A stretch of 64,000 nucleotides of DNA, from NCBI GenBank assembly GCA_021731405.1, contig JAKFXN010000005.1:105892-169891 (forward strand), given 5' to 3'. Shown here piece by piece: positions 1 through 50,594 of this stretch. The DNA is from Candidatus Parcubacteria bacterium (GTDB lineage: Bacteria > Patescibacteriota > Minisyncoccia > Phycocordibacterales > UBA918). A program made the translations under genes and the position numbers. Under the pieces are notes generated by a model that worked only from the letters and a program-made list of their open reading frames with translations, had not been told where the DNA came from and ran no database searches. Numbering within the stretch: the stretch's first letter is position 1; each line of letters begins with the position of its first letter.

Positions 1-3000
1 AACTGGAGAGTTATTTGTGACATCATACAAACGGAAATAGTAGACCGCGTTTACGCGTGCTGCTGCATGTCTAATAGTAAATGAATACTCTTGCGTAGTT
101 TCTGCAAAGTGTACGTGCCCCGTGGCTGCGTTAGGGCCAGTGTTGTGGCGTCCGCACCCAATACCTACCCCCGCCACACAAACATCTCCTCCAGTAAGAA
201 CCTTAGTACTGACTATTTGATTATCAGTCACTACAGCATCTTCGTAACACCAGAGAGAAAGGTCTGTACAGGTGGTTGTTGCAGCAACGTCTATCGGATT
301 AGTGAACGCCACGTCTTCAGAAAACTGTAGTTTAAATTTAATGTCTTCACCCTGTACGTTTCTTCTCTCATTTACATTAATCCGCAATGCAATGGCGTTA
401 CCATTCACTATATTGATAGGGGCAACGTCCTCGTTTGCGAGAGCTGTCAAAGGTGTTTCATTTTCAGAGTCATTGTACCATCGCCAGTTTTGTGTAGCGG
501 GACTAAAGCCAGCCGTCCTGATTTGCGGATAGTTACTATAGGTATCAAGTGGCGAGCCGTCACTATAGACTGCTCTAAAACAATACGTACTTTGTGGCGT
601 TGCACCGTTGTGTTGCAGATACCAATCATATTCAACATCGTCCCCATCATTTACAGGATACGGGTTTACTGCTGAAGGGCTTTCATGAACAAGGACACCA
701 GCTCGATTAGCTATAGAGATAAGGAGTTCTCCTCCGGTTGGAGGGTCGTTTGAAAGCGCTGTCCCGTCAGCAGTTCCAGTTGCTGAAAACCCTCGCCAGA
801 CGGTTCCGCTTGAAGCGTCTCCAACATCAGACCAACTTCCCCCATCTACTGCAGAGCACGTTGAAACACGGGTGGCGTACTGAAGTTTATAATTGAGAAG
901 TCCTGCGGGCATTGTGGCGTTAGCGGTACGAAGAGTCATCCGAATTCTCACCACATCACTCGTCCCAAGGGGTTCATCAGCAATCGTAATAGAAGTATTT
1001 TCTCCTAGGTTTGATGGTCCAGGTGGCCATGGATCAGTTGGGGTAAGGGCATTATTATCTGCGTAGAATCGGTAATAATTTTGTCTAATTGAAAGATCTG
1101 CCACCGGCCACTCGACCAGCTCAACACGGTACTGGAGTGCTGTACCAGTGTTACTTCTCCAAATTTGGTAGGTAGTTGTACTGGTAATAGTAAAACCCGC
1201 CATCGGTCGCGGATAGGTTGTATTGGCTCCTGCACCACTTGAGTTTGCGGAGATAGAGGTATTATTAAGAGCTTCGATTGGCGTAGAGAGTACTACCGAA
1301 AGAGCGAGTGGCGCAGTACCGCCGGTAGTAAGTCCGTTTGAACGTTGTACGACCATCGCTCCCCCACCTGATTCGATGTTTTCTATTACCCACGCCACAG
1401 AAGTTTGCTCAACCGCTACCGTCGCTCCTGATTCAAGCTGGAACGAAACTGCACCAATACTTGAAAGCCACACCTGGTCTCCGAAGTTGACAACGTTAGT
1501 GGTAGCACCAACTCGTCTTTGCGCATGGATAAATGTACGCGCTAAACTATTTACTGCAGTAATAGGTTCTGTCTCTGTGACTCCTGAGGCACTGTAGGTA
1601 TGTGATACTCTTTGCACATTCCAGTTTGGTCCAACAAATTCTACGACCGCATAGCTCACATCAATGGCACTAGCACCGTTGGCAGCTCGCCGTATGATAG
1701 GTGCTTGAAGAGCGGTATTCCACTCAGAAGTAACCTGACTCGCGTAAAAATTTCTTGCTGTATTACGGTTGCTTGAGCCAGTTACAAACACCACCACGTT
1801 ACTGTTATCGCTCACATTTGAAAGTACTGTGCCCGTAGCCACGACCGCTGTCGTATTAAATGCAAGTGTCCCAACTCCACGAACAACCATTTCATTATCT
1901 GTACCAGCGTTTCCTATAAACTCAACAATCTCCCAATCTACCCGGGTGTTGGAAGTAGCAGCGGGGGGTCTGGTAATGGTAAAGCTTGTGCTGATGTTGC
2001 TTGGATTTGAGATGTAAGCCGTAACATCATCAGCGTTTTGCCCGGCGGTGGCTACGTTGTTTCCAGCTCCAGTCTGATGTGAATTTGTGATTCTGACAAA
2101 TGCCCGCGTGCTACTGGCTGGTGCCACATAATCAACTCCGGCAGTGACTGTCGCTGAAGTCCCACTCACCTGCACCGATCCGCGCTGCACTTTAAAATCA
2201 CGTTTTGCAGCAGTGGTAACTTCAGCGTACTGAGAATAAGTGTTAAATGCAGTGCCGTTTGAAGAGGCTCTAAAGCAGTACGTAGTACCAAATGAGGTAA
2301 AACTGGTTGAGGTTAAACTAAACTCGACATCAAGATAGTCTCCAATCGGTATTGTAGTAGTGGAAGTCAACGACTCAGTATCACGAACTCCGCCGTTGGC
2401 GGCAATAAAACTTCCACTACCATTACTTACACCACCATTTGCAATTGAAATGTTGGTGGTTGTCTCACCGTTTGTGAGGAAAGCTGAGTTGTACATGTCC
2501 CAGCCATCTAAAGATGCGTTCACGTCTGTCCATACTGTAGCCATATCACAGGTAGTAATCTTTGGTGCATACTCGACGCGAAAGCGTGTCGGTACACTAG
2601 AAACTGAGCCAGTGTTGGTAATTCCAAGTCGCAGTCTAATCTCTTCATTTTGGGCAAATTCAGTCAAAGGTGTATTTTCGGTTCCTGCTGTTGCGGAAGA
2701 AGCAGTCACTTCAGTGCCGTTGTCAGTGCGCCAGTGGTATCCCAATTGCGTTACTATCGGACCCTGTACCGTAGTCTCACCGCTTATAGTAACCGCGCTT
2801 GAAGGCCCCACACTTGCCCCGCCACTCACGAGCACATCGTCAGCCGGCGAGGTAATTTCCAGATCTATTGTCTCTCCATTTTGAGCAGCATTTGAAACAT
2901 CATATACAACATACAAACAAAGAGCTGAAATAGAGGAGATACTCACGGTGTCTGTAAACACCGCCGTCTCACCCACTCCATCAAAGCCATTTGTGCTTGT

Positions 3001-5601
3001 CGCTCCGTACTGTAGTTCAGTACCACCATATGACACACTGGAGCAATTATATGGAAGTGTAGTATCAAACTCATAGACTAGACGGACATTCTCTATATCA
3101 GTTGCACCGTCAACTGTCCCAAGTTCGCTTATTTCTACAGAGGTTACGTCACGTGTAGTTGCATTCTCAATCACCGCGAAGCCACCGCCGGCGTATACAT
3201 TTGCCTCCAGCACGTCGGCTGTAGCTGTCTGTGTGCCAAAACTTTGGACTGACACGTCAGCCGCAATGGTTGCTTCTGGGTAGTGACTATAGACACTAAG
3301 TGGAGTACCGCTTCGTGTCATTCTAAAACAATATGTTTGACCCTCAGTCGCACTGGTTGACGCCACAATAGAAAACTCTGCCTCTATAAAGGCGTCAATC
3401 GCTAGTGTTACCGAGCCAGTGGTGTTTGTTGTGTCACGTACACCGCCATTGGAGGCCAAAAAAGTGGTTCCGGGTAAATCAGTTATTCCGCCACTTGATG
3501 ATGCAATATTGGTAGTGTTGTTTCCATCAGTTAAATTGGCAGAGTTAGACAATACAAAGTCAGCATCAACTGCCCCTACCGCTTCCCATGATGAAGTATC
3601 TGTACAAGCAGGCGCAGCGAGGCCGTATTCTAGTTGGTAAGTTGATGCAAGAGTTGAGGTTGAGCCCTGATTTGCCACACCAACCCGAATACGCCTCGGT
3701 ACACCAATTGATAAACTATTCAAAGGGGTATTGGGAACTCCAAGCGTCGCGGAAGACGCGGTCACCTCAGTACCATTGTCTGTGCGCCAGTGATATCCAA
3801 ACTGTGTAAGGTTTGGATCCACGATAGTTGTAGTGCCGGCAAGAGCAACGTCAGTATCTGGATAGACAAGAAAGCCACCCGATACGGTTATATCTGTCTC
3901 TGGATCTGCTACTGAAATTTCAATCGTATCACCGTCTCCAGCCGTTACTTCGACATCAAACACAGGGTAAATACACATACTTTGAGTGGGCAAAATAGAG
4001 ACTGGCGCATTGGTAAAACCGGCTACGCCATTGGCGCCTGAGAAGCCGCCACTTACGGTCGAGCCAAACTGCGCCTCACCTCCTGTATAAGATTCACTTA
4101 CACAGTTATAAGGAGCTGAAGTGTCGAATTCGTAAAAAAGTTCAACATTTTTTATATTATTTTGAGCTTGGACGGTTCCACTCTCAGTTATTACGATATT
4201 GCTGACCGTTTGACTTGAAAGCGACTCAAGCATAAATGCGCCCCCGACATAAAATGCATTTGCATCAGTGCGGGTCTGAGCTGTTTGTGTTCCGAGTGTC
4301 GTGAGTCGTATCTCAGGACCTATATCAGCGTTTGTGTCTCCAAAAATATCTTGAGTGCCGACGTTGTTGTACCAACTAGTAAACAAACGGTCATAGGACA
4401 TGATGTTCATATCAACACCATAGAAGTCACCTGCGGCACTATTGAGCGGACCTTGTTCTGCACCCCAACTAGTCATACTGTCAGTAGAACTTCGGTAGTA
4501 TACGTTTGCTGTCGCTGCTGTTCCAATGGTTGTTCTTGCGGTATAGGCTACATAAATATTGCCATTGTTTTGGTCTCTCCCAATTGCCACCTGTAAGAGG
4601 CCTCTCGTGGGATGGTTAGTAATAATATCAGCCGTACTTGACCACGAGCCGCTTGAATAAAGTCTTGTGCGGATGTCGTGGTCAGCAACAGTGAAGGTGT
4701 CATTGTCAGCAGTGTACGCAATGTAGATATCTCCCGTATCAGTATCGATAGTCGCAGCCATTCCAACGTCGTAGGTTGTGTTACGAATAGCTGAAGCATC
4801 TACAATTGTGAATCCAGACCAAATAGAACCATTCCAAGTAGATGAGCGAACCTGACTACCAGTACTGCGGTTTATAAGAAGTATGTTTCCCGCCGAGAGC
4901 GGCATGAGAATGCTCCAGCTATCAGCGTTTCCTTGTGGTGGTGTTCCAACAGCCCCCCAGTTGACTGCTAAGTTACAAGACGAGATACAGGAACGAATAA
5001 CGGTGGCGTTACCATCATCAGCCACAATATATATACGGCCATCAGTTCCTTTGGTAATACTATTTTCGTTTGTCCCAGCCGCATACACAGCGGCTGAACC
5101 AGCTGAAACGTTCACCGCTGTAACCAGAAGAAGTGTGTCGCTCGTAGTATCAAGACGGTTGTAAAAAACGTCGTCATCACCAGTATCAATAGTAGAGATA
5201 TGAATATTGGTACCGGTATCACCTGGAGTCCATTTGTCGTACCACACCGTTATACCAATACAGTCAGTCTGTGTGTCTACGACCACAAAGCTCCCCCACG
5301 TACCGCCACCATTAGTTGTCTTTCGGTAACCACACATTCCGCTACTCGGGGCTGCTCCATAACGGTGAAATTTATACCCGACTTGGTCGTCAATAAAGAC
5401 AGTAGATGCTCCGGACTGAGTGTGCACAGCAGCGGTTGTGTTTGGAGTTGCTTCAATAGTTACTTGAGCCGCCTCTGCTTCATTGGGCCAGAGTAACAAA
5501 ACATTTAAGAGTGTTGTGTTTGACACCTCAGCCAGAAAAGACAGCACTAAAAAGAGTGCTACTATTTTATTACCAATATTAAACAAACCCCGGAAATTCA
5601 T
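1..5601 (-). CDS. Very large secreted repeat protein, partial. The start codon is at 5601-5599 and the 3' end runs off the left window edge. It has a signal peptide and Thr/Ser/Gly-rich propeller-like repeats resembling modules of the giant protein.
   Basis: Manual reverse-complement translation from the ATG at 5601 gives MNFRGLFNIGNKIVALFLVLSFLAEVSNTTLLNVLLLWPNEAEAAQVTIEATPNTTAAVHTQSGAS... with no stop in the first ~250 codons checked. No other minus-strand ORF over 83 aa is listed in 1-5600, which fits one open frame truncated by the window edge. All plus-strand ORFs here look like antisense shadows. Confidence 0.6.
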   Translation of the reverse strand, partial: MNFRGLFNIGNKIVALFLVLSFLAEVSNTTLLNVLLLWPNEAEAAQVTIEATPNTTAAVHTQSGASTVFIDDQVGYKFHRYGAAPSSGMCGYRKTTNGGGTWGSFVVVDTQTDCIGITVWYDKWTPGDTGTNIHISTIDTGDDDVFYNRLDTTSDTLLLVTAVNVSAGSAAVYAAGTNENSITKGTDGRIYIVADDGNATVIRSCISSCNLAVNWGAVGTPPQGNADSWSILMPLSAGNILLINRSTGSQVRSSTWNGSIWSGFTIVDASAIRNTTYDVGMAATIDTDTGDIYIAYTADNDTFTVADHDIRTRLYSSGSWSSTADIITNHPTRGLLQVAIGRDQNNGNIYVAYTARTTIGTAATANVYYRSSTDSMTSWGAEQGPLNSAAGDFYGVDMNIMSYDRLFTSWYNNVGTQDIFGDTNADIGPEIRLTTLGTQTAQTRTDANAFYVGGAFMLESLSSQTVSNIVITESGTVQAQNNIKNVELFYEFDTSAPYNCVSESYTGGEAQFGSTVSGGFSGANGVAGFTNAPVSILPTQSMCIYPVFDVEVTAGDGDTIEISVADPETDITVSGGFLVYPDTDVALAGTTTIVDPNLTQFGYHWRTDNGTEVTASSATLGVPNTPLNSLSIGVPRRIRVGVANQGSTSTLASTYQLEYGLAAPACTDTSSWEAVGAVDADFVLSNSANLTDGNNTTNIASSSGGITDLPGTTFLASNGGVRDTTNTTGSVTLAIDAFIEAEFSIVASTSATEGQTYCFRMTRSGTPLSVYSHYPEATIAADVSVQSFGTQTATADVLEANVYAGGGFAVIENATTRDVTSVEISELGTVDGATDIENVRLVYEFDTTLPYNCSSVSYGGTELQYGATSTNGFDGVGETAVFTDTVSISSISALCLYVVYDVSNAAQNGETIDLEITSPADDVLVSGGASVGPSSAVTISGETTVQGPIVTQLGYHWRTDNGTEVTASSATAGTENTPLTEFAQNEEIRLRLGITNTGSVSSVPTRFRVEYAPKITTCDMATVWTDVNASLDGWDMYNSAFLTNGETTTNISIANGGVSNGSGSFIAANGGVRDTESLTSTTTIPIGDYLDVEFSLTSTSFTSFGTTYCFRASSNGTAFNTYSQYAEVTTAAKRDFKVQRGSVQVSGTSATVTAGVDYVAPASSTRAFVRITNSHQTGAGNNVATAGQNADDVTAYISNPSNISTSFTITRPPAATSNTRVDWEIVEFIGNAGTDNEMVVRGVGTLAFNTTAVVATGTVLSNVSDNSNVVVFVTGSSNRNTARNFYASQVTSEWNTALQAPIIRRAANGASAIDVSYAVVEFVGPNWNVQRVSHTYSASGVTETEPITAVNSLARTFIHAQRRVGATTNVVNFGDQVWLSSIGAVSFQLESGATVAVEQTSVAWVIENIESGGGAMVVQRSNGLTTGGTAPLALSVVLSTPIEALNNTSISANSSGAGANTTYPRPMAGFTITSTTTYQIWRSNTGTALQYRVELVEWPVADLSIRQNYYRFYADNNALTPTDPWPPGPSNLGENTSITIADEPLGTSDVVRIRMTLRTANATMPAGLLNYKLQYATRVSTCSAVDGGSWSDVGDASSGTVWRGFSATGTADGTALSNDPPTGGELLISIANRAGVLVHESPSAVNPYPVNDGDDVEYDWYLQHNGATPQSTYCFRAVYSDGSPLDTYSNYPQIRTAGFSPATQNWRWYNDSENETPLTALANEDVAPINIVNGNAIALRINVNERRNVQGEDIKFKLQFSEDVAFTNPIDVAATTTCTDLSLWCYEDAVVTDNQIVSTKVLTGGDVCVAGVGIGCGRHNTGPNAATGHVHFAETTQEYSFTIRHAAARVNAVYYFRLYDVTNNSPV

Positions 5602-11650: not shown

Positions 11651-12799
11651 CTAGAATACTGGCGTTGCTACGTATGTCAGCGTAGCTGTGTAATCGCTGC
11701 CCGCTTCTTGTAGCGGACCTACTTCAACGGTATATCCTACACGTGTGATACCGACTCCTTGCGTTGTCGAATCAGCTGGTCCATCGTGTCGGAAGATTTC
11801 TACTGGTGTAGTAGAAGCAGATACATACATTCGTCCGCCGCCCCCTACATCAAAGTAGTTATCGAGGTCAGGATAAATGGTATCGTCGTTTGTTGTGATT
11901 CCCCAGTGTCCATAGGTATCTTCGTCACCTAGGGCAGATGTTGGACTCTCATAAAACAACGGTGTGTCTGTATATGCTCCATTACTATAACCATCGATAT
12001 CAGCACCTGTGGCTGATGTGAGTTGTTGGTCAGCATGTACTGTAACGACAAAGCCGTTAGCTGCGTTGGTACTTACTTCTAAGTCCTGCGCAGCGGTGAC
12101 TGCTGTATCAGCTTCTAGAACTCCAAAAGGAATTTCAGTAGAAGTTGTTGTACCGCTCGTTGTGTCTCCGTTGATTGCAGCTCCCGCATTTACACCTGTA
12201 ACAGTGAAATCGAAAATTGTTTCAACAGAGGCAGTAACTGTAACAACGTCAACAATTGCTACTCGCGTCGCACCAGTATCACTACTTCCAACAGTAAGCG
12301 TAATTTCGTACGAGTTTACAGCAGGGTTAGTGATTTGGTTTGAACCAGCTCCACCAGTAGTGGCGTTGGTACCAATTTCAATGGTGACAGTAGCATTTGC
12401 TCCGATAGTACTTGTGCCACTTTCAATGTCAATGACATCTCCAGCGGCAGTAACGTTCCAGTCCGCCCCACTGGCAACACCGTCGATAAGACTTTGCTCA
12501 ACGCCGTTGACGTTTAGGTCAACATCGGCAGCAACGATGGTTCCAACATCTGTAAAGACGCCAGTACCGAAGTTGATTGAGATTGTCTCACCAGCAGCGA
12601 GGCCAGTTGGTGTAACGAAGGATAGTGTGTGGTTGGATACTACCCCAGGTGCAGAATCTGAGAGTGTGTTACTAAATGAGATGACATTTGCAGCTTCCGC
12701 TCGGAATAAAGGTACACCTACGAACCATAAAATGATTGCGAGGGTAACAACTGCGGTGATTGCTTGGAGCAACGTGAACGTTGTATTCGTTCTAATCAT
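11651..12799 (-). CDS. Secreted Thr/Gly-rich beta-sandwich surface protein with a possible distant WxL-like C-terminus. Paralog of 53041-54132.
   Basis: Signal anchor then AEA|ANVISFSNTLSDSAPGVVSNHTLSF. The C-terminal region contains YGHWGITTND and ends TLTYVATPVF, alongside WGHWGLTSDD...TLMYIATPTF in the paralog. Confidence 0.55.
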   Translation of the reverse strand: MIRTNTTFTLLQAITAVVTLAIILWFVGVPLFRAEAANVISFSNTLSDSAPGVVSNHTLSFVTPTGLAAGETISINFGTGVFTDVGTIVAADVDLNVNGVEQSLIDGVASGADWNVTAAGDVIDIESGTSTIGANATVTIEIGTNATTGGAGSNQITNPAVNSYEITLTVGSSDTGATRVAIVDVVTVTASVETIFDFTVTGVNAGAAINGDTTSGTTTSTEIPFGVLEADTAVTAAQDLEVSTNAANGFVVTVHADQQLTSATGADIDGYSNGAYTDTPLFYESPTSALGDEDTYGHWGITTNDDTIYPDLDNYFDVGGGGRMYVSASTTPVEIFRHDGPADSTTQGVGITRVGYTVEVGPLQEAGSDYTATLTYVATPVF

Positions 12800-13091
12800 G
12801 TTGCTCTACGTTGTATTAGTTTTTCAGCTTAGATTGACGTCGCGACCGAAAAAACTAAATGAGCAGATACTCATGCGGGCGTCGGGTCTCCACTCCTTTC
12901 GCCTATATGTGCGCTGCAAAACATACCTACTTTGAAACACTCGGCTGAAGTGTCCAGATACAGCTACGCTGCACCTGCAGTAAGACTAATTTCTTACCTC
13001 CTAAGTAAGTACTCTTTCATTGTAACGTGTTGAATTTTTTTATAGGCTGCGTTATACACAAACGAACAGAGGAACGTAGTGACTATTGTGA

Positions 13092-13150
13092 GTTTGTGCA
13101 GCCGCTTAGCTGAGCTGCGACCCCGAAGGGAGCAGTCAGCTGCAGCGGTC
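13092..13150. ncRNA. Repeated intergenic element X, copy 1: hairpin with a GACC-CCGAAGG-G core, then CTGCAGCGGTCTGCCAAAT.
   Basis: CCGCTTAGCTGAGCTGCGACCCCGAAGGGAGCAGTCAGCTGCAGCGGTCTGCCAAATAT. A related sequence occurs at 13194-13258 and 44938-44988. Confidence 0.45.
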
Positions 13151-13193
13151 TGCCAAATATTTGCGTTTAAATATTTAAAGGGTAGTGAGATAC

Positions 13194-13258
13194 TGCAGCC
13201 ACTTAATTGAATTCGACCTTCGGGAGAGAATTCAATTGCAGTGGTCTGTCAAACGGTC
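13194..13258. ncRNA. Repeated intergenic element X, copy 2, with a perfect 10-bp stem around a UUCG-type loop.
   Basis: AATTGAATTC-GACCTTCGGGAGA-GAATTCAATT-GCAGTGGTCTGTCAAA-CGGTCTGACAAATAAT. A partial third repeat GCAGTCTGCCAAAG lies at 13280-13296. Confidence 0.45.
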
Positions 13259-13366
13259 TGACAAATAATAGATAAAGCCGGACAAATATAGCAGTCTGCC
13301 AAAGAAATAATAAAACCTCACCACATGCTGGCAAGGTTTTATAACCCTTAGTAAAATCAATATTAA

Positions 13367-14497
13367 TTATCCGCTCCAATTAAACAGCAAAATAGAAAAG
13401 TCCTCAATACTCACCCTCCCGTTACCATTTATATCCGCAGGAGGATTAGAGTTTCCTCCGTCTGTCTGCCACCAGAAAATCAAAATAGAAAAGTCGATTA
13501 GGTTTACTCGTCCGTCACGATTGAGATCTGAAGGAGTAGTTACCTGTCCATCAACGCCAACAAAAAGTTGTAGGGTGGAACTAAAACTACTTTGTGTAGT
13601 CAATTGTCCGGTCCCCGTAACCGAACGAGCCCGAAGGGTATGCGGAGCAACTGAGAGTGAGGCGGTGTTTAAAGTAAGACTCCAATTTCCCTCCGCGTTT
13701 GCCGTGGTGCGTTCTATAGTTGAGCCTGTATCTATATGTACTTCTATTCCTGCGCTAGGAATAGATTGTCCACTTACAGTCACTATGTCTCCCGGGTTTA
13801 CGTTTTGGTTTGGAACACGAATAGTCGGCGGCAAAATAACACCAGCAATATTTGTAACCGCACCCTGCGTCACATCAAAGGTAGTGTTGAGAGTAATTGA
13901 GCGAGTCCCTGCAACGTCTGTGGCCCAAAAGCCAAGTGAGGCGGTGCCTGGTGAAGCGTCGGTAGTAAAATCAAATCTTCCTGCCCCATTGGCGCGTACA
14001 CTACCGACTGTTTCTGAGTCAAGAATTATATTGATAGTACGGCCAGGGTAGGCGAGGCCCGTGACACTTATGATAGTATCTCCCAGTTCAGTGGTACTTC
14101 CTCCGCTACCACCACTTCCTCCTCCCGAGCTTCCTCCTCCTCCCGAACCAGCTGGTTCAACCTGACAAATTGCTGAACAAAAGTCTCCATTGTCATTATT
14201 ACCATCATCACATTCTTCAGAGAATTGTGTCTGTAAAATTCCGTCCCCGCAATACGGACCAAAATTACAAATAGTGCTGCACTGTCGTCCAACTATAGTT
14301 GTACTATACACACCAGTCTCACCTGGAGCATCACACTGCTCACCATCGTCTACAAGTGCATTACCGCAGATACTTAAACTAAGGGTGGTTGATGCTGTAC
14401 CTGCAAAAAAAGTTTGTGCGAAAGCGACCTCCCCTTGGAGTAGTAGGAGTACAAGGCAAGAAAGTAAATAGAAAGTAAATCTCATAAGTCTATCCAA
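13367..14497 (-). CDS. Secreted dockerin-bearing protein: N-terminal Cys-rich repeats of the Myxococcus-type CGDG...CDDGN...C pattern, a Gly-rich linker, two Ig-like domains and a C-terminal type-I dockerin.
   Basis: YCGDGILQTQFSEECDDGNNDNGDFCSAIC repeat. C-terminus DLNRDGRVNLIDFSILIFWW...DINGNGRVSIEDFSILLFNWSG (two dockerin segments). The C-terminal half is paralogous to that of 45148-47058. It overlaps the upstream gene by 8 nt. Confidence 0.7.
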   Translation of the reverse strand: MDRLMRFTFYLLSCLVLLLLQGEVAFAQTFFAGTASTTLSLSICGNALVDDGEQCDAPGETGVYSTTIVGRQCSTICNFGPYCGDGILQTQFSEECDDGNNDNGDFCSAICQVEPAGSGGGGSSGGGSGGSGGSTTELGDTIISVTGLAYPGRTINIILDSETVGSVRANGAGRFDFTTDASPGTASLGFWATDVAGTRSITLNTTFDVTQGAVTNIAGVILPPTIRVPNQNVNPGDIVTVSGQSIPSAGIEVHIDTGSTIERTTANAEGNWSLTLNTASLSVAPHTLRARSVTGTGQLTTQSSFSSTLQLFVGVDGQVTTPSDLNRDGRVNLIDFSILIFWWQTDGGNSNPPADINGNGRVSIEDFSILLFNWSG

Positions 14498-17510: not shown

Positions 17511-18719
17511 TTATTCATATCTAATCGCATCAAGTGGATTGAGGGTTGAAGCACGTCTGGCTGGGAAAACTCCTGTTAAGTACCCCACTCCAGCTGAGAA
17601 AAGAGCAATGAAGACCAAAAATACAATTGGGAAAGAGAAAAGTGAGACAGATTGTCCACCAAATTGACCCGCCACGATATTCAAAAATAGATTGACAGTA
17701 AGACCTAAGGCAACGCCCATCACAATTCCACTCACCCCACCCATAAAGCCCACCACAATAGACTCAGAAATAAAGAGGTTTTTTACGTCTTTTGGTGAAG
17801 CGCCAATTGTACGCATAATTCCAATTTCTTTTGTTCGTTCAAGGAGTGTAACTGTCATGGTATTAAACATACCAATAGCAGATACAATAAGTGCAATTCC
17901 GCCAAAGGTAGCCAGTACCGCTTGTACGCCTTGGAAAATCTTTGACGCCTGCTCCACAGTCTTTGAAAGTGCGGTTACTCGATAGCCAGCTTCAATAAGG
18001 CGAGCTTCAACAATCGGTAGATTTTCGTTTGAGTTCACACGAACTTGAATACGCTCATATTCTTCAATACCCACGTGATTGCGAAGCTCTGGAAGCATCA
18101 TCATGGCATTAAGAACACCTTCTTCTTTTGTAATACCACGTACGGTGTACTCTTTATCAATTGGAACCTCAACCACTGCGTCAGTCCCATCCTCAGCTGG
18201 TACAAGCAGTCTGAAAGATACTTTTTCGCCAACAAAAGACTCCGCTTCATCAATTCCGAAAAGCTTCAAAACAGCAGGGGAAAGCATTATGCTGTTTGTA
18301 TCACCAGCATCTTCATCAGTAAAAACAGTTCCTTCGGTTGCTGTTACTCCTGCATACCGTAGGTATGGAGGCTCAACACCTTGAATAAAGACGTTTCCGG
18401 TTAAACCTTTATAGGTAACGAGCGCAGGAAAGCGAGCCAATGGTGCAGCATCAAGAACCTCTTCATACTTTTTAAAAGTATCAACTGTTTCAACTGTGAG
18501 TTTGAGGTTTTGTGCACCTGTGGCAGAAACACCAAGTGAGAGAAGTGTCTCTCCAAACACAATCTGCTCAAGAATGATTTTTTGTAGACCAAAGCCGAGT
18601 CCAACCAGCACCACCACCGCTCCAGTTCCCACACCCATACCTAAAATCGTAAGCCACGTACGAAGTGGGTTAGTTTTAAACATTCGAGTTGAGAGTTGGG
18701 CTAGATCTTGAATTCGCAT
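17511..18719 (-). CDS. ABC transporter permease, FtsX/MacB-like, with an N-terminal TM, a large extracytoplasmic domain and a C-terminal 3-TM FtsX domain.
   Basis: 402 aa. N-terminal TM LRTWLTILGMGVGTGAVVVLVGLG, ~230-aa ectodomain, then C-terminal FtsX-like helices (ATFGGIALIVSAIGMFNTMTVTLLERTKEIGIMRTIGAS...). Immediately downstream of the ABC ATPase. Confidence 0.8.
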   Translation of the reverse strand: MRIQDLAQLSTRMFKTNPLRTWLTILGMGVGTGAVVVLVGLGFGLQKIILEQIVFGETLLSLGVSATGAQNLKLTVETVDTFKKYEEVLDAAPLARFPALVTYKGLTGNVFIQGVEPPYLRYAGVTATEGTVFTDEDAGDTNSIMLSPAVLKLFGIDEAESFVGEKVSFRLLVPAEDGTDAVVEVPIDKEYTVRGITKEEGVLNAMMMLPELRNHVGIEEYERIQVRVNSNENLPIVEARLIEAGYRVTALSKTVEQASKIFQGVQAVLATFGGIALIVSAIGMFNTMTVTLLERTKEIGIMRTIGASPKDVKNLFISESIVVGFMGGVSGIVMGVALGLTVNLFLNIVAGQFGGQSVSLFSFPIVFLVFIALFSAGVGYLTGVFPARRASTLNPLDAIRYE

Positions 18720-18797
18720 TAAATGAAATAATGAGCGTAGCGATTATATTGAATTTAGTTCCTAATTTTCTCCATTACTAGAGAAAATTACTGGAAC
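18719..18797. ncRNA. Conserved structured intergenic element, copy A (hairpin-motif family), lying between the ABC ATPase stop and the FtsX start codon.
   Basis: TTAAATGAAATAATGAGCGTAGCGATTATATTGAATTTAGTTCC-TAATTTTCTC-cattacta-GAGAAAATTA-CTGGAAC. The outer stem GTTCC/GGAAC and the 10-bp inner stem are shared with copy B, and the inner stem shows compensatory changes between copies. Confidence 0.5.
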
Positions 18798-44838: not shown

Positions 44839-44937
44839 ACACTAGTATTATAGTATTTTTTATTATCTATTTGTGATGTTACCCACACAAGTAGAAATAA
44901 GAAGAAGCAAAGCTTCTACTATATTTTACTTGTGCAG

Positions 44938-44988
44938 GCGCTTAGCCATGATTCGACCCCGCAGGGAGAATCTGGCTGCAGCGAGCTG
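44938..44988. ncRNA. Repeated intergenic element X, copy 3.
   Basis: GCGCTTAGCCATGATTCGACCCCGCAGGGAGAATCTGGCTGCAGCGAGCTGCCAAATGAG. It shares GCTTAGC, the CGACC-hairpin-AG core and CTGCAGCGxxCTGCCAAAT with copy 1. Confidence 0.45.
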
Positions 44989-45162
44989 CCAAATGAGTAA
45001 AGAAGCATAGTGAAGTCTATATCTTTATCCAGTCCAGTTTAAATGAGTAGACGAGCGTAGCGACTACTACGAATTTAGTTCCCGATTTGTCCTCCTAAGG
45101 CAAATCGCTGGAACTCGAAGTAAAGAAGCATAGTGAAGTCTATATCTTTATCCTGTCCAGTT
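44987..45162. repeat. Two direct repeats of about 44 bp flanking element B: R1 at 44987-45039 and R2 at 45120-45162. R2 includes the last four codons and the stop of the dockerin gene 45148-47058.
   Basis: GTAAAGAAGCATAGTGAAGTCTATATCTTTATCC(A/T)GTCCAGTT occurs twice, about 133 bp apart, with the hairpin element in between. Confidence 0.6.
45043..45118. ncRNA. Conserved structured intergenic element, copy B (same family as 18719-18797).
   Basis: TTAAATGAGTAGACGAGCGTAGCGACTACTACGAATTTAGTTCC-CGATTTGTCC-tcctaa-GGCAAATCG-CTGGAAC. The inner stem sequence differs from copy A but complementarity is preserved. Confidence 0.5.
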
Positions 45163-47058
45163 AAACAGCAATATAGAGAAGTCAGTTAAGTTAACCTTGC
45201 TGTCACTATTAATGTCAGCTGACGGATCAGAATTACCGCCATCGGAATTCCACCAGAAAAGTAGAATTGAGAAGTCAGTTAAGTTAACCTTGCTGTCACG
45301 GTTCAAGTCGGCATTAATAGGGCGCGCAGCTGATTGTCCCACACCGTAAAACGTAAAGTTTGAAAAGTTTGTTGAGGCACCAGAGGCCTGTACTGCCCGT
45401 GCGCGCGTTTTATAAGTACCAACAGAGAAGCCGCTGGTGTTTATTGTTGTTGACCATTGCCCGTTTCCGTCAGAAGTAACGGTTAGACTTTGCTTTGAAG
45501 CGGCTGACCCTTCCTTTTCATTTTCTATAGTTATTGTTGCGTCTGGTAGTGCATACCCGCTTAGAGTGAGTGTACTTCCTGGAGTAACAGGGTCAGGAGA
45601 AACTTTAATAGTTGGGGCAAGGTTGATGTTTGAAAGCGCTGAAGTTCGAGCACCAATAACCGTAAATGAGGTACTAAAGGTAGATGAGCGCACTTGCGCA
45701 GTATCGACCGCATACACACCAAAGGTATACGCACCGCGCGCTATCTCATCAACAGTAATTGAATACACTCCCTGATTATCTGCACGTTCACTTGTTACCG
45801 CCTTCCCATCAACAAGTGCAAAGACCTCACTTCGCGGAAAAGCGTAACCAGAAATAATTACCCGAGCATCTCCACTTCGATACGGTCCATCGGTACTTTC
45901 AAATCCTCCGCCAGCGGTGTTACCTGAACCTCCACCCGAACCACCACCGCCGCCGCCACCCGAGCCACCCGAACCAGAGGATCCACCTTGAGCAGGTGCA
46001 ACTCCGTCAGAGCTTCCTGTCTCCCCTCCGGAACCTCCTCCGTCTCCGGTACCATTATTACCCGTACCGGTACCATCACCATCTACTTCTCCTTCGGTAT
46101 TGGATTCACCGGTTGGAACAGCACTAACGGCAAATTCGATTAAGTAATCATCGATGTTAAAGTTTCCTTCATCGTCAATACAGCGGACATAAAATTGTTG
46201 AATCGTATCTGGAAGAACTGAGACTACAACCGTGTGAAAAATAAGGCCCGTACCTGTAAAGGTGTTCGGCATTGAGGCATAACTTTGTCCTGGTGTAAGA
46301 CTATACTTGCAAACTGCCAACTCATCAGTCTGAAGGAAAAGTTCGACACTCAAAGTAACACCGGTTACCGTACTACTCGGCGCACCATTAAAGCGATCAG
46401 GCGGAATCTCTTCTGTCGTATCGATTGGTCCAACACCAACACGGTTTACCAGCGAGATAGAAAAACTTGCATCTGCTACCAGTCCGCCATCATACACTTC
46501 GAGGCGTACTTTTTTAGTACCCGTAGTTGAGGCGTTTATTACTGGTTCTTCATCGCCAATTATTGTAGTAGTACCAGTTGTGGTGGCAAACGTTTCACTA
46601 AACTCAAGAGATTTTGAAGTATGGTTTCCAATCTTCAATACCAACTCAGAACCAGAAGTGATTCCGGTCACGGGGTTAAGTGTGTACTTAATTGAACCAG
46701 GTGAACCGGGAAATATTTCAACCATATCCACCCCTGGAGCAAGAGTGCTGTCAGAGCTTCTTAAAGATCCATCTACCAACAATTCAACATTTCGCTCAGC
46801 TGCAAACGTACTAGTACTTAGGACTTCAAAACCAGCAGGAAGCGTGACTTCAAAGTACCCTCCCGGAGAAACATTAGTGCCAATCTTAAACGAAAGGGTG
46901 TGATTAGAAGCTCGTAGTGGCGCCGAATCAGAGATAGTGTCTTTATATTCATTGATATTGCGAGCGAACAAGATATCTGGAAAAAACAGAAACAACGTCA
47001 GCATCAGAATACCAACCGCTGCCAGTAAAAACGCCCAGGCTTTAACCACTAAAGTCAT
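45148..47058 (-). CDS. Secreted dockerin-bearing protein: signal peptide, an N-terminal beta-sandwich shared with the WxL-like proteins, a Gly-rich linker, Ig-like domains and a C-terminal type-I dockerin.
   Basis: The track start at 47211 would overlap the upstream ABC gene by 86 nt. The internal Met MTLVVKAWAFLLAAVGILMLTLFLFFPDILFA (about 47058) is a better signal peptide. N-terminal motif SDSAPLRASNHTLSF. C-terminus DLNRDSKVNLTDFSILLFWW...DINSDSKVNLTDFSILLFNWTG. Confidence 0.7.
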   Translation of the reverse strand: MTLVVKAWAFLLAAVGILMLTLFLFFPDILFARNINEYKDTISDSAPLRASNHTLSFKIGTNVSPGGYFEVTLPAGFEVLSTSTFAAERNVELLVDGSLRSSDSTLAPGVDMVEIFPGSPGSIKYTLNPVTGITSGSELVLKIGNHTSKSLEFSETFATTTGTTTIIGDEEPVINASTTGTKKVRLEVYDGGLVADASFSISLVNRVGVGPIDTTEEIPPDRFNGAPSSTVTGVTLSVELFLQTDELAVCKYSLTPGQSYASMPNTFTGTGLIFHTVVVSVLPDTIQQFYVRCIDDEGNFNIDDYLIEFAVSAVPTGESNTEGEVDGDGTGTGNNGTGDGGGSGGETGSSDGVAPAQGGSSGSGGSGGGGGGGSGGGSGNTAGGGFESTDGPYRSGDARVIISGYAFPRSEVFALVDGKAVTSERADNQGVYSITVDEIARGAYTFGVYAVDTAQVRSSTFSTSFTVIGARTSALSNINLAPTIKVSPDPVTPGSTLTLSGYALPDATITIENEKEGSAASKQSLTVTSDGNGQWSTTINTSGFSVGTYKTRARAVQASGASTNFSNFTFYGVGQSAARPINADLNRDSKVNLTDFSILLFWWNSDGGNSDPSADINSDSKVNLTDFSILLFNWTG

Positions 47059-47125
47059 CTTATCTATAAGTATACCCCGCACAAATACAAACAATATGTC
47101 TGGTCGTGAACAACTTGTAACTCTT

Positions 47126-48892
47126 TTATTCAACCAAAAATCCACCAGCTTGGTGTTGCCACAACTGAGCGTAGTGACCTTGTTTCTGAAGCAGTGTCTC
47201 GTGAGTACCATCTTCAGTTATTGTTCCTTCTTCAAGAACGATAATCCTATCCATTTCTCGGAGCGTCGATAGTCTATGAGCAATAGCAATAACCGTCTTA
47301 CCTTCCATCAAAACATGGAGTGCTTTTTGTATTTCTCGTTCGCTGGTGCTATCGAGGGCAGAAGTAGCCTCGTCTAGGATAAGAATAGGAGCGTTTTTGA
47401 GCATTGCCCGAGCAATAGCTACGCGCTGCTTTTGTCCACCCGAGAGCTTTACTCCCCGTTCTCCCACAAGGGTGTCATACTTTTGTGGCAGTCGCATGAT
47501 AAAGTCATGTGCCTCGGCCTTCTTGGCGACTGCTATAATTTCGTCCGAGGATGCGTCAGGTCTCCCGTAGGCAATATTTTCTCTAATAGTCCGATGAAAT
47601 AATGACGGTTCTTGCGGTACCAGTGCAATTAACTCGCGAAGTGAGTCTTGTGTGACACTAGAAATATCTTGGCCATCAATACATATTCGCCCCTTTAAAA
47701 TAGCGTGTTGTCGCAAAAGGAGTGACACAAATGTACTCTTTCCTGCTCCAGAAGAACCAACCAGTCCAATTTTTTGGTGTGGCAAAATTGTCAGGTTAAA
47801 ATTTTCAAACACAGCCAAATCATCAAATTTAAAAGTGACGTCTTTCCAATCAATACCACCGCCTTCTACTTTTAAGGGTGAGGCTGGGATCATATCAACT
47901 ATCTCGTACGGTAGCAGGATGTCATCAAGTCCTTCGCGTAATTCTCCGGCAGTCCTTGCGGTGGCGTTAAAGGCTCTTCCGATAAAGAGTAGTGAGCCAG
48001 TAATATTTGAGATTAGAGCTAATACAAGCACAAACTCACCGGTAGTGAGCATACCTTCGCCCCACTGCGTTACAAGCCGCCAAAACATGAGTGAAGCAAA
48101 TACAAATAAGAGCAGGCTGTTTATCGTCAAAAGTTTCTCGGTGTACAGCCAGTTCCGTACCCCTTTTTCAAACTTGTTTTGCGTCAATTTTTGTACTTCA
48201 GTGAGCTCATAGTCTTTCCGCACGTATTGGCGTGTAGTATGCACGTTTGAAAGCACATCCACCAAATACCCTTGTAGCAAGGAACCAGCTTCAGCATTTT
48301 CTTTCGCCACAATAGCTTTTGTCTTAGCGAAGCGTTTATTAACTACAAAGAGTACCGTAAGGAGTCCAATAAAAATAATCCCCGACTGAGAATCTACAGT
48401 TAAGATGAGGGCAAATGTCACTAAAAAGGTAACGAGGACACTCAAATGTGCCCACAAAATATCTGGAATCATCTCATCAAACGCTGAGGTGACGTTTTTT
48501 ATTTTATTGGTAATTGAACCGGCGAATCGATCAATGAAGTAACTATGACTATGCCTCATAATGTACGTCATTAGGGTATTAGTAGCCGTCTGATTACTAC
48601 CAACAGTGAGGTGCGCACCTGCATATCCACTCACTCGATATATAAGCTGAACTAGTAGTATAAAAAATGGATATAAAAGTCCCCACATTAAAGCCGCGTT
48701 AAGGTCGTCCGCTTCGACAGCATCAATGATGAGCTTAAAGAAGTAGCTGGTTGATGCTCCTGCGGCTGACGCAATCACTACCGCGATTACTGCCAAAGCT
48801 GCCCAGCCCTTGTGCTTACCTATAATGTATATGAAAAAACGATACGGAGTATTTGGAATTGTTGTTTCTCTGGCGGAGGTGAGTGATTTCAT
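47126..48892 (-). CDS. ABC exporter with fused N-terminal 6-TM domain and C-terminal NBD (MsbA/type-I exporter family).
   Basis: 588 aa. Walker A GSSGAGKST, signature LSGGQKQRVAIARAML, Walker B ILILDEATSALD. N-terminal half hydrophobic. Confidence 0.85.
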   Translation of the reverse strand: MKSLTSARETTIPNTPYRFFIYIIGKHKGWAALAVIAVVIASAAGASTSYFFKLIIDAVEADDLNAALMWGLLYPFFILLVQLIYRVSGYAGAHLTVGSNQTATNTLMTYIMRHSHSYFIDRFAGSITNKIKNVTSAFDEMIPDILWAHLSVLVTFLVTFALILTVDSQSGIIFIGLLTVLFVVNKRFAKTKAIVAKENAEAGSLLQGYLVDVLSNVHTTRQYVRKDYELTEVQKLTQNKFEKGVRNWLYTEKLLTINSLLLFVFASLMFWRLVTQWGEGMLTTGEFVLVLALISNITGSLLFIGRAFNATARTAGELREGLDDILLPYEIVDMIPASPLKVEGGGIDWKDVTFKFDDLAVFENFNLTILPHQKIGLVGSSGAGKSTFVSLLLRQHAILKGRICIDGQDISSVTQDSLRELIALVPQEPSLFHRTIRENIAYGRPDASSDEIIAVAKKAEAHDFIMRLPQKYDTLVGERGVKLSGGQKQRVAIARAMLKNAPILILDEATSALDSTSEREIQKALHVLMEGKTVIAIAHRLSTLREMDRIIVLEEGTITEDGTHETLLQKQGHYAQLWQHQAGGFLVE

Positions 48893-48918: not shown

Positions 48919-49722
48919 CTATTTCACACAGCGAAAACCAACCGCTGCTCCACTAAAGTTTGGGGGTGTTTGCGCATGTACCGTATAGGTACCAGCATCA
49001 TCTTTACTGCCATAAAATCCACCACGAATAATTCCAAAAGCACCTGTTCCACTTGTCCAAAAATAATCCCCTTTTATTTCAGTGCTTGTCTCTTCTTGTG
49101 TGATGGTCGCCATTCCCGAACTATCAACTTGGCTCACATATCCAGTCCCTGGTAACTCTCTTCCCTGATACACCCCCTCAATGACATCATCGCTCACCCA
49201 CTCCCACACATTACCAACCGTATCTTTTACGCGAGCGGCGGAAATACATGTTTCATACTCACCAGCTGCGCTAATGTCGCCACTTGCAATATTACAACTA
49301 TCTTTTGTCGTTCCGAGGGAAAATTGATACCACTCACTCGCTGAGGGAAGTCGTTTGCCTGCTCTCGTACAAAGTATGGCTGCTTGCTCTCTGTCAACAA
49401 ACCGCCATGGTTCATTACCCACCTCACTAGTAGGTACACAATCACTTTTTGAGAGATTTATTTCTGTATCATACTGACTTGAAGGATTGACGACGGTACA
49501 ATCTTCTTGAACTGATGCTTCAAACTCATCTACGCACGTAAATGTCAGAGCCCCGGATACCGGTATCATCCCCGCAGGACAAATTTCTGTCTGTGTTCCA
49601 ATGAGCGAGGCTAGCATAGTACCCCCTTTTCCAGTCAATGTGTCAGTAGCATCAATACTAAAAGTCGTAAGAATAAGGGCTACAAGAACCCCGCCACCAA
49701 TTGTGAAGACCTTCTTATACAT
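48919..49722 (-). CDS. Secreted formylglycine-generating-enzyme (FGE)/SUMF1-family domain protein, paralog 1 of 3.
   Basis: N-terminal TM/signal. C-terminal ...DYFWTSGTGAFGIIRGGFYGS...GFRCVK is characteristic of the FGE-sulfatase (SUMF1/EgtB/PvdO) fold. Multiple conserved Cys. Confidence 0.7.
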   Translation of the reverse strand: MYKKVFTIGGGVLVALILTTFSIDATDTLTGKGGTMLASLIGTQTEICPAGMIPVSGALTFTCVDEFEASVQEDCTVVNPSSQYDTEINLSKSDCVPTSEVGNEPWRFVDREQAAILCTRAGKRLPSASEWYQFSLGTTKDSCNIASGDISAAGEYETCISAARVKDTVGNVWEWVSDDVIEGVYQGRELPGTGYVSQVDSSGMATITQEETSTEIKGDYFWTSGTGAFGIIRGGFYGSKDDAGTYTVHAQTPPNFSGAAVGFRCVK

Positions 49723-49760
49723 ATATATGTATATTGTACCGCAAAGCTGCAGCGAAACCT

Positions 49761-50579
49761 TTATTTAACACACCGAAATCCAATGGCGGCACTAGCAAAA
49801 TTCTGATCAGTTTGAGCATGTGCAGCATATATTCCGCCATCCGCACGACTACCATAAAATCCTCCGCGAATAAGCGTGAAGTACCCTGTTTCTTGTGACC
49901 AAAAATAGTCATCATGATAAATAGTATTTGGTTCTGAGGTAGTCAAAAGTGCAACTCCAGAAGAATCGGCGAGAGCAACATATCCTTCAGCTGGTAAAGT
50001 CCGGTTTTGATACTGCCCATCTTTGATGGTTTCACTGGTGTGCTCCCAAACGTTACCCACCATATCAAACACACCAACGCCTGAAGTACAGTCTTTAAAC
50101 TGGCCTGTTTTTGCCAACTGACCATCTGTATTACAAACAGCACCATCTGTACTACCAATTGCTGCCAAGAACCATTCTTCTGCCGAAGGTAGTCTCTTCC
50201 CCGTCTTTGCGCATAGTTCTACTGCTTGCGGTCGAGCCACTGAAGTCCATGGAAGAACCCCTTCTTCAGACACTGGTACACAATTTTTTTGCGAAATATT
50301 ATGTGCGGTATCTACCGTACTGGCTGGTGCTTCAATAATACAATCCTGACTTGGACTCGCTTCATACACATCGATACAAAAACTACCGCGTTCACTTTCT
50401 ACCAGCTGCATCCCAGCATCGCACTCTTCATTATTAATATTTGTAGCAAATATACTTAAAGCAGTTTGCGAGCCACGTAGGGTATCAGTGGCGTCAATAG
50501 TAAACGAGGTCAACAAAATAATCCCGAGCGTAACGAGTGAAAACCTGAGGCTCTGTGTGAGTATTTTTTTCATGCTCAT
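49761..50579 (-). CDS. Secreted FGE/SUMF1-family domain protein, paralog 2 of 3.
   Basis: Same architecture: signal, Cys-rich N-terminal half, ...YFWSQETGYFTLIRGGFYGS...GFRCVK. Confidence 0.7.
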   Translation of the reverse strand: MSMKKILTQSLRFSLVTLGIILLTSFTIDATDTLRGSQTALSIFATNINNEECDAGMQLVESERGSFCIDVYEASPSQDCIIEAPASTVDTAHNISQKNCVPVSEEGVLPWTSVARPQAVELCAKTGKRLPSAEEWFLAAIGSTDGAVCNTDGQLAKTGQFKDCTSGVGVFDMVGNVWEHTSETIKDGQYQNRTLPAEGYVALADSSGVALLTTSEPNTIYHDDYFWSQETGYFTLIRGGFYGSRADGGIYAAHAQTDQNFASAAIGFRCVK

Positions 50580-50594
50580 ACCAATAAGTATACG

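Follow-up and report, generated by a model that had tools for sequence, protein, structure and literature searches.

The 64,000-nucleotide stretch of a Candidatus Parcubacteria genome analysed here (the window) carries copies of a structured repeat, the hairpin X, which an earlier note on this DNA had picked out as an intergenic element present three times. X is the 3' half (HP2, ~56 nt) of a ~105-nt unit in which a second hairpin (HP1, ~40 nt), recognised from the flanks of copies in other genomes, stands directly 5' of HP2 with zero spacer. The two-hairpin fold is conserved on one strand, and the unit is modular in architecture and forms arrays. It is multicopy and intergenic and, among named genomes, restricted to Paceibacteria; it persists at orthologous sites, is present or absent between close relatives, and is in some places flanked by duplications of variable length anchored at its sharp 5' end. 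From the comparison of sequences, we consider it probable, if only by a modest degree, that the unit is a lineage-specific, modular, structured interspersed repeat of Paceibacteria that spreads by copy and insertion, the spread being deduced from the pattern of copies.

Copies in the window and their fold

Three X-bearing units (c1, c2 and c3) and two fragments lie in the window as follows.

13058-13097, + strand: HP1 (5' hairpin) of c1, ACAAAC-GA-ACA...GUA...UGU-GA-GUUUGU, from its fold and an alignment with 24 other units
13098-13158, + strand: HP2-X of c1 (first copy of the earlier note), hairpin 13098-13153 and a CAAAT tail
13159-13194, + strand: HP1 of c2, degenerate and 5'-truncated, holding the AAATATTT-GCGTT-TAAATATTT palindrome and a GTAGTGAGATAC remnant
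13195-13254, + strand: HP2-X of c2 (second copy of the earlier note), hairpin 13195-13249 and a tail reaching 13254
13254-13267 (CGGTCTGACAAATA) and 13292-13305 (CAGTCTGCCAAAGA), + strand: two 3'-terminal X fragments, direct repeat family D1
44887-44933, + strand: HP1 of c3, AAGUAGAAAU/AUUUUACUU subtype, inverted repeat I1, from its fold
44934-44994, + strand: HP2-X of c3 (third copy of the earlier note), hairpin 44934-44989 and a tail reaching 44994

A covariance model run over the 64 kb recovers c1 (13081-13158, 85.3 bits, E = 5e-23), c2 (13178-13254, 67.3 bits, E = 1.4e-17) and c3 (44917-44994, 81 bits, E = 1e-21), all on the + strand, and besides them nothing better than E ~1; the copies that had been placed at 13092-13150, 13194-13258 and 44938-44988 are real, with ends that move by a few bases, up to 5-10 nt. 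Their common layout is TGCAG-N-C-R-CTTA, a variable stem, CGACC-loop-GGGAG, the complementary variable stem and TGCAG-Y-G-NN-CTG-Y-CAAA, with the TGCAG of c1 at 13097. As first described, a shared GACC-loop-GGGAG core is enclosed by differing stems, the box CTGCAG(C/T)G..CTG(C/T)CAAA follows the hairpins, and c2 has a perfect AATTGAATTC/GAATTCAATT stem (10 bp of AATTGAATTC, inverted repeat I5); the apical G.A loop of c2 contains one extra A. The 19-mer box, allowing up to 3 mismatches, occurs twice against 0.02 expected. The folds of the three X copies have z-scores from -3.9 to -6.0, HP2-X of c1 reaching a minimum free energy of -41.1 kcal/mol (z = -6.0), and whole units fold at -47.4 kcal/mol with z = -6.3 (c1) and -6.9 (c3). 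HP1 of c1 is matched by nhmmer at 13059-13095 (E = 1.7e-7), while the HP1 subtype of c3, whose apical hairpin AGAAGC-AAA-GCUUCU is Watson-Crick throughout, is also seen at many other loci.

The HP1 remnant of c2 is recognised through direct repeat D2, which aligns 13088-13113 with 13185-13210 at 77% identity. The AAATATTT palindrome, earlier put at 13145-13170, exists at 13155-13176 and consists of the spacer and the degenerate 5' module of c2. Similarly, the extra X sequence reported as a single partial copy at 13280-13296 resolves into the two 3'-end fragments listed above, which are leftovers of truncated or decayed units; TCTGNCAAA is present four times inside 160 nt of this region.

HP1 has the general form 5'-(U)UAAU-GA-GCAA-ACGA-(2-6-bp GC-rich stem + 3-4-nt loop)-GACUA-UUGC-GA-AUUUA-3', in the order outer stem Pa, GA/GA, stem Pb, ACGA/GACUA internal loop and apical hairpin. 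HP2 runs from GCAG/CUGC through a 1x2 purine loop, CGCU/AGCG, a bulged C beside a conserved U.G pair, the variable stem, tandem G.A and CC/GG to the apical loop, which in X often carries CCUCC or UCCUA. The ends of the unit are conserved as TT(A/G)A (5') and CTGC-AAAG (3'), and the 5' boundary is sharp, with information content at zero right upstream of TT(A/G)A. Across 103 HP2 matches from other genomes and metagenomes (loci L017-L096), 94.7% of cells are paired and 20 of the 21 pairs show double-sided changes; none of 500 shuffles reaches as good a pairing score, and sliding the partner strand leaves 26-52% pairing. HP1 shows double changes in all 13 pairs of a 25-unit alignment, 22 of whose sequences, those from outside the window, were picked for the canonical fold, a choice that inflates the 100% pairing and not the covariation. 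The earlier proposal of a repeated structured element with compensatory stems is borne out by this covariation in other copies, and because units are retained for long with compensatory substitutions the fold itself appears to be under selection.

Selection also appears to see one strand in particular. Three tandem G.A/A.G motifs are conserved on the TGCAG strand, one below the apical CC/GG of HP2 and the other two in HP1; on the opposite strand they would read U.C/C.U. A U.G pair stands beside the bulged C or U in 90 of the 103 copies (A-U in the remainder), G.U and A-U alternate in Pa (12 vs 12), and the + strand fold of c1 is the more stable one by 6 kcal/mol. Because the strand-specific motifs are retained even in copies antisense to all of their neighbours, such as those of the window, the selected object would be the TGCAG strand, as RNA or as single-stranded DNA, and not merely a hairpin in the mRNA of a neighbour.

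Several other explanations of these sequences were tried and set aside. No kink-turn, hammerhead or hairpin-ribozyme core matches by inspection, and Rfam is silent; two of the tandem G.A motifs form symmetric 2x2 loops and the third is in the 4x5 ACGA/GACUA loop, where both strands have additional bases. This does not correspond to a kink-turn or box C/D RNA, with its 3-nt bulge ahead of tandem G.A on one strand and, on the other, G.A joined without a gap to the C-stem. Small open reading frames (ORFs) were considered on both strands, where loops of GGGAG or GGAGG look like Shine-Dalgarno (SD) sequences and TTG or ATG could serve as start, but their frames and lengths vary between copies. A linker pairing with the 3' tail was dropped since the linker is the 3' strand of HP1. 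On the - strand, a sigma-54 promoter (TGGCAG-N-TGCA) would have its GG/GC spacing one base short, and copy 2 is without the GG.

Modules, placement and turnover

HP1 is joined to alternative 3' hairpins. In the loci searched, the hairpin next to it is X 67 times and one of the other types (Y, the longer Z, composites) 15 times, and two units of type Y lie in the window.

18720-18797, + strand: unit Y1, HP1 18720-18757 and type-Y hairpin 18758-18797, from nhmmer and fold, antisense in the ABC-ATPase/MacB spacer
44997-45039, no strand assigned: upstream flank of Y2, one copy of a 43-nt direct repeat with one mismatch (direct repeat D1)
45040-45119, + strand: unit Y2, HP1 45040-45077 (nhmmer E = 1.3e-9), type-Y hairpin 45078-45114 and TCGAA, supported by its fold

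The Y hairpin of the window reads GTTCC...CCUCCUAAGG...GGAAC, and the type in general is G(U/C)UCC-N-GAUUU...UCCUAA loop...AAAUC-GCU-GGAAC, also found at L009 (5332-5215), L048, L060 and L030. The third and longer module Z, UGUCCC..CCCCAAGAGUAUUUCCGUUUUUAUA..CCUCUUUAAAAACUAGGC..GGAC, follows HP1 at L007 (2770-2660, - strand), L068 (~775-900), L085 (4880-4935) and L045 and sometimes stands between HP1 and the X hairpin. Another recurrent module, GGCGCCUCCUUUCUGCCAACC-loop-GGUUGG with CCUCCUUUCU, lies 3' of some X units (L072 at 2455-2478 and 2645-2676, and several metagenome loci); we take CCUCCUUUCU to match the 3' end of 16S rRNA. The Y loops are often CCUCCUAAGG, complementary to the Shine-Dalgarno sequence, and SD-like and anti-SD-like strings are concentrated in the repeat hairpins, in contrast to the SD-poor gene starts: the window start codons at 12799, 18719 and 44838 and the rplK, rplL and rpsL starts at the other loci mostly have no recognisable Shine-Dalgarno sequence and A/U-rich leaders.

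Beyond the window, 185,579 species, each represented by one genome, were scanned with a strict pattern. The 14 loci returned are all from metagenome-assembled genomes (MAGs) of Paceibacteria, Nomurabacteria or Kaiserbacteria, where by our own estimate chance would give less than one hit, and a reverse-strand variant of the pattern added 106 stretches in metagenomes. The covariance model (R1) matches three times in the window, 19 times in L003-L016 (five of these matches had not been picked by the pattern) and 103 times in L017-L096, which brings the copies beyond the window to 122 and the total to 125; among named genomes, every copy is in a Paceibacteria MAG. The further copies on which the earlier note had rested its own check do exist, and its fallback of an ancient local duplication is excluded by the 122 copies in other Paceibacteria. 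The pattern has no match in the IMG/VR viral contigs, blastn of the consensus unit found none in phage and plasmid collections, and in Rfam 15 the 64-kb window has no gathering-level match, nor does 12800-13400 have any relevant one with E as high as 10; ten array-bearing loci, taken to E = 0.5, return only rRNA, tRNA, a group I intron and noise. The open-access literature searched on the RNAs and repeats of the Candidate Phyla Radiation (CPR), Patescibacteria, Parcubacteria and Paceibacteria does not describe the element either, its one lead being the TIGR-Tas arrays discussed below, and within Rfam 15, the collections searched and that literature it is undescribed.

The copies are intergenic in 121 of 125 cases, and their orientation is near random, being the same as that of the upstream gene in 53 cases and opposite in 50 (60 vs 43 for the downstream gene). 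Arrays run head-to-tail with up to four units (L009, L087, L091, L078); only at L072 and L074 do opposite orientations meet at one locus. The neighbouring genes are functionally unrelated (dockerin proteins, hsp20, ribosomal proteins, EF-P, GroEL, rRNA, ABC transporter). Sense-orientation units stand inside highly expressed operons, as in 23S-X-tRNA-tRNA-X-5S (L072), 23S-5S-X-terminator (L015) and, in several genomes, nusG-X-rplK and rplJ-X-rplL, and at L057 a unit lies immediately upstream of a GroEL-like ORF. Where the 5' strand of HP1 overlaps the last codons of a gene, its 3' strand covaries with those codons, as in nusG and in a gene ending MKMMKND(A/V). As a separate observation, three nusG-rplK loci that have no X unit (L042, L069, L108) show the last nusG codons pairing with a segment ~100 nt downstream, e.g. 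GGUAUAAAUUGG...CCAAUUUAUACC; this pairing covaries between genomes and encloses another conserved element.

The earlier note had counted elements of the neighbouring mRNAs among its candidates, and a cis-regulatory role, be it as stabiliser of a 3'UTR, terminator/antiterminator pair, leader or translational element, can claim some of this placement. Spacer sites are often 20-60 nt upstream of a co-oriented start codon; where the downstream gene is within 400 nt, co-orientation prevails by 41 to 20, about 2:1; some HP1 5' strands overlap and covary with the last codons of nusG or other genes, and a unit stands between rplJ and rplL in five loci. In the window, however, all ORFs of at least 150 aa around both X loci are on the - strand and the X copies on the + strand, so that c1-c3 do lie between a dockerin gene and the next gene, as had been stated, but opposite to both rather than on their strand; the three X and both Y units are antisense to every neighbour gene (dockerin genes, hsp20 and the 382-aa gene in the case of c1-c3), and the antisense placement is stable at the orthologues of these loci (L091, L087, L017, L066). 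The dockerin gene 13367-14497 (-) has its own canonical intrinsic terminator at 13342-13310, beyond which c1 and c2 lie, upstream of the conserved -10-like box of the next gene. No U-tract follows HP2, which is succeeded by CAAAT or AAAGG, and the terminator scan flags other hairpins (13342-13310, -) and not X. With functionally unrelated neighbours and no conserved alternative pairing as well, we regard a cis-regulatory element as quite improbable; as a 3'UTR stability element or terminator/antiterminator of the dockerin genes, antisense and past their terminator, with near-random orientation over 125 copies, X does not hold up.

Comparison of orthologous spacers shows both retention and turnover. 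The dockerin/382-aa spacer that holds c1 and c2 has three, four and one X units in L091, L087 and L017, and the dockerin/hsp20 spacer of c3 has one, an orthologous unit, in L066; retention with compensatory changes extends over at least four genomes for these two spacers and over five loci for rplJ-rplL. The ABC-ATPase/MacB spacer is 146 nt long with HP1+Y in the window and ~165 nt with HP1+X in L029, but is empty in L098 (19 nt) and L027 (8 nt), where MacB is 90% and 85% identical and the proteins flanking filled and empty spacers share 85-90% amino-acid identity. In both filled spacers HP1 starts, with its first base, right next to the MacB start codon (18717-18719 for Y1). Between rplJ and rplL, five loci have a unit (the sequence is the same in L032 and L039) and L012 has none; between nusG and rplK, units occur in three genomes (L013, L009 and the identical pair L068/L118) and are missing from six other loci. 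L018 carries an exact 142-nt tandem duplication of a unit of which the otherwise identical L025 has one copy.

Some units are framed by direct repeats. The 43-nt sequence upstream of Y2 ends exactly at the first base of its HP1, and within its downstream copy (45120-45162) the dockerin gene 45148-47211 (-) has its last four codons, its stop codon and its 3'UTR; the orthologue L066 has neither Y2 nor the 43-nt duplication, and Y2 is probably a recent insertion. A single unit upstream of rpsL in L020 has a 27-nt flanking repeat, and repeats of 23, 14, 14 and 12 nt occur in L072, L087 and L017. Flank repeats of at least 12 nt accompany 8 of 80 units, compared with 5 of 391 shuffled flank pairs, and in six of the eight the upstream copy ends no more than 3 nt from the HP1 start while the downstream copy begins 5-82 nt past HP2. 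Target and element 5' end share a microhomology of 2-5 nt (TTAA, TTG). Apparent repeats of gene ends that had suggested a "guide" to the upstream gene are the HP1 of the next unit or target duplications.

Proposed mode of spread and relation to known repeats

The copy-and-insert reading accommodates these patterns in the following way. New copies would arise from a single-stranded intermediate that starts at the first nucleotide of HP1 and ends at a variable point 3' of HP2, and they would enter A/T-rich spacers beside stop codons, start codons and terminators, at times duplicating 12-43 nt of the target through staggered breaks or template switching. Arrays would grow and shrink by tandem duplication and unequal recombination, with HP2 types swapped on a common HP1. 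An inserted unit would ride in any transcript that crosses it, including pre-rRNA and ribosomal protein mRNAs, and its fold might be selected for propagation and copying or as a protein-bound processing or stability module in the transcript; a function as a small RNA or protein-binding site, both named in the earlier note, is possible. What is said here of the intermediate, the enzyme and the benefit to the host is inferred.

Several points weigh against this reading. No transposase, HUH nuclease or reverse transcriptase is found among the 709 ORFs flanking the copies, whose clustering gives housekeeping families only; ORFs with a YxDD motif, considered as reverse transcriptase candidates, are aminotransferases, GyrB and similar proteins. 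Clear flank duplications are limited to ~10% of units, and some of these might not mark true insertions but stem from template switching or a local tandem duplication. That units stay at orthologous sites for long and change in a compensatory fashion is explained by a host function no less well than by a selfish element, and the excess of co-oriented downstream genes hints at a role in cis. For the strand assignment we rely on the logic of the motifs and on slight energy differences, with c3 and the Y units about equally stable on either strand, and the HP1 alignment was, as noted, a chosen one.

In a rival explanation the units are multicopy small-RNA genes, or RNAs processed from longer transcripts. 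HP1 would be the 5' module that they have in common, for processing or stability, and X, Y and Z would be different mature RNAs that either bind a Paceibacteria-specific protein or work by way of their C-rich apical loops; changes in copy number would be ordinary gene duplication. The strong covariation and conserved non-Watson-Crick motifs are typical of protein-bound RNAs, the arrays look polycistronic and some sites lie in rRNA operons beside tRNAs and 5S, subtypes are common to distant genomes, units are kept at orthologous sites in fixed orientation, the sharp 5' end could be a processing site, and the apical loops often read CCUCC or UCCUA. Other findings count against it. An anchored profile of 92 units has no conserved promoter motif upstream of HP1; a sigma-70 promoter upstream of or inside HP1 was rejected on this profile, and also on the TTGAAT-GACTAT spacing, which varies with the apical hairpin, and promoter and terminator scans of the window give no convincing sigma-70 promoter at the units. 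In 11 of 109 units the end of an intrinsic terminator on the same strand is no more than 10 nt from HP1, too close for a promoter to fit between them; a terminator follows the unit in only 14 of 109, and there is no clear asymmetry of terminators around the units. Antisense insertion into a 19-nt operon spacer and the target-like duplications around some units are likewise unexpected of small-RNA genes, an explanation that we consider unlikely.

In behaviour the unit resembles BOX, REP/BIME and Correia repeats, but it lacks the defining features of each. The BOX repeats of Streptococcus pneumoniae (boxA-boxB(n)-boxC) and the Paceibacteria units are alike in being short (~100-200 nt), modular, strongly folding and intergenic, and both exist in many copies, which can face either way and have an internal module that is repeated or can be exchanged; both are noncoding, travel in the transcripts of neighbours and have no known dedicated enzyme. 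The Paceibacteria units differ from BOX in having no sequence similarity to it, in the constant 5' HP1 with alternative 3' hairpins X, Y and Z, in their head-to-tail arrays and the long variable flank duplications of some copies, and in their host, which is a CPR lineage and not the Firmicutes.

Repetitive extragenic palindromes (REPs) and the mosaic elements built of them (BIMEs) in Enterobacteria and Pseudomonas, with their RAYT transposases, share with the unit imperfect extragenic palindromes, compensatory evolution, clustering in arrays, persistence at orthologous positions and sites after genes and inside operons. A DNA hairpin or cruciform of this kind, recognised by a RAYT-like HUH (Y1) transposase or a nucleoid protein and mobilised at replication forks, would account for multicopy intergenic arrays whose orientation is independent of transcription (GC skew, which tracks gene direction here, is confounded as a proxy for replication orientation), for imperfect palindromes in which mismatches and G.T pairs are conserved, both being tolerated by enzymes that act on single-stranded DNA, for conservation at orthologous sites as seen with REPs, and for a sharp end at the foot of one hairpin. 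Yet REPs are single 20-40-nt palindromes with a 5' GTAG, in alternating orientation and linked to a RAYT gene, whereas the unit found here is ~105 nt long, combines two different hairpins (~40 and 56 nt) with ends TT(A/G)A and CTGC-AAAG, and forms direct, head-to-tail arrays with target duplications. No RAYT (Y1/HUH) gene is present among the 709 ORFs, a scan that covers the flanks of the copies (~560 kb). To our knowledge, IS200/IS605- and RAYT-type mobility involves no target duplication, in contrast to the 12-43 nt repeats observed here. We rate a REP-type element as improbable.

The Correia (CREE/NEMIS), RUP and ERIC families of MITEs (miniature inverted-repeat transposable elements) are, like the unit, non-autonomous spacer insertions of ~100-150 bp with presence/absence polymorphism, long hairpins in RNA and sites next to start codons and terminators. 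MITEs, however, are bounded by terminal inverted repeats and duplicate a short stretch of target whose length is fixed (TA for Correia), whereas the unit has a sharp 5' end, a variable 3' end and duplications of 12-43 nt. Its 5' end is TTAAATGAG or TTAAGCAG and its 3' end GAGCTGCAAAG; these are not reverse complements, each pairing within its own hairpin, and the flank repeats measure 12, 14, 14, 23, 27 and 43 nt in ~10% of units.

By analogy, the insertion footprint resembles that of target-primed retrotransposition more closely than that of any bacterial MITE. Short interspersed nuclear elements (SINEs) are likewise small, structured and noncoding, with a precise 5' end, variable 3' extra sequence, target duplications of variable length, microhomology at the 5' junction (here TTAA or TTG) and 5'-truncated copies, of which c2 and the 12-14-nt X tails at 13254-13305 are examples here. 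The analogy is one of footprint only, the unit having no A-tail, no known internal promoter and no reverse transcriptase found near its copies, and we know of no SINE-like element described in bacteria. A bacterial counterpart would be a structured RNA cut or started at the first nucleotide of HP1 and occasionally copied into DNA, by a reverse transcriptase acting in trans or an equivalent single-strand copy-and-paste process, with the fold as recognition signal; insertion at staggered breaks would then leave target duplications of 12-43 nt, transduced 3' sequence and 5'-truncated copies. The footprint is compatible with such an element, and we hold it rather unlikely that the unit is a SINE counterpart or, alternatively, an abundant protein-bound small RNA of Paceibacteria (HP1+X) riding in rRNA operons.

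Arrays of tandem units in CPR genomes might also suggest guide RNAs of a TIGR-Tas or CRISPR type, the tandem G.A motifs recalling box C/D-type RNAs. TIGR systems are reported in CPR and share with the unit tandem structured RNA-like units in which short conserved motifs surround variable segments (PMC12045711). Their units, however, are 36 nt long with two single-stranded spacers of 8-12 nt and stand beside a Nop-domain Tas gene (PMC12045711). Here the variable segments are paired with each other, the units are ~105 nt long and many are scattered singly over the genome, and no adjacent Nop-domain gene was found; the Pfam scan behind this covers 33 ORFs (27 of the window and six of other loci), with the giant ORF and some small ORFs outside it. 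A guide array is scarcely credible. Integron attC sites, which have R''/L''...L'/R' core sites (RYYYAAC...GTTRRRY), stand after cassette ORFs in one orientation only and have intI close by, are not matched by stem bases of TGCAG/CTGCA in near-random orientation, and the window ORFs scanned include no integrase.

The genomes of CPR bacteria, including those of the ultra-small Paceibacteria, are ~1 Mb in size and thought to be streamlined and poor in repeats and regulators. The element is at odds with this picture in its strong covariation and non-canonical motifs, its sites in rRNA, ribosomal protein and chaperone operons, and its numbers, maybe tens of copies per genome if one extrapolates from three X and two Y units in the 64-kb window and three units in one 4.7-kb contig. 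Whether an undescribed type of mobile element with an unusual insertion footprint or an undescribed abundant structured RNA, it would be new for a major uncultured lineage. The covariance model offers a ready marker for Paceibacteria contigs, the units account for many "unexplained" long spacers, assembly breaks and spurious small ORFs in Paceibacteria MAGs, and filled versus empty sites are natural experiments on the effects on neighbouring genes.

Neighbouring sequences

The ~250 nt upstream of the 382-aa gene (11651-12799, -), at 12804-13056 on the - strand, are 84% identical to L091 and 79% to L087 and keep large invariant blocks even in L017, where the protein is 52% identical. A CATTGTA (reverse complement TACAATG, -10-like) at ~13021-13027 is invariant in this region, which also has a UUAGGAGGUAA hairpin and GGAGUGGAGACC and finds no match in Rfam. 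Its sequence suggests a long 5' leader that has been conserved, or else a cis-regulatory RNA missing from the catalogues.

A 6,967-aa ORF (21769-42672, -) lies amid cohesin, dockerin, sortase and WxL-interacting-domain genes on one strand. In the first 5.6 kb (1-5600) closed ORFs do not exceed 174 aa, so that a further giant ORF probably continues past the left edge of the window. At 48919-51410 (-), three tandem paralogues of 267, 272 and 271 aa each have a C-terminal FGE-sulfatase/C-type-lectin-like domain, presumably the usual fold of the variable proteins of diversity-generating retroelements; no reverse transcriptase was noticed in the window. At L015, a group I intron-like match (4291-4489, -) lies in the 23S rRNA gene with 47.4 bits, the gathering score being 50, and the same rRNA operon holds the X unit after its 5S gene.

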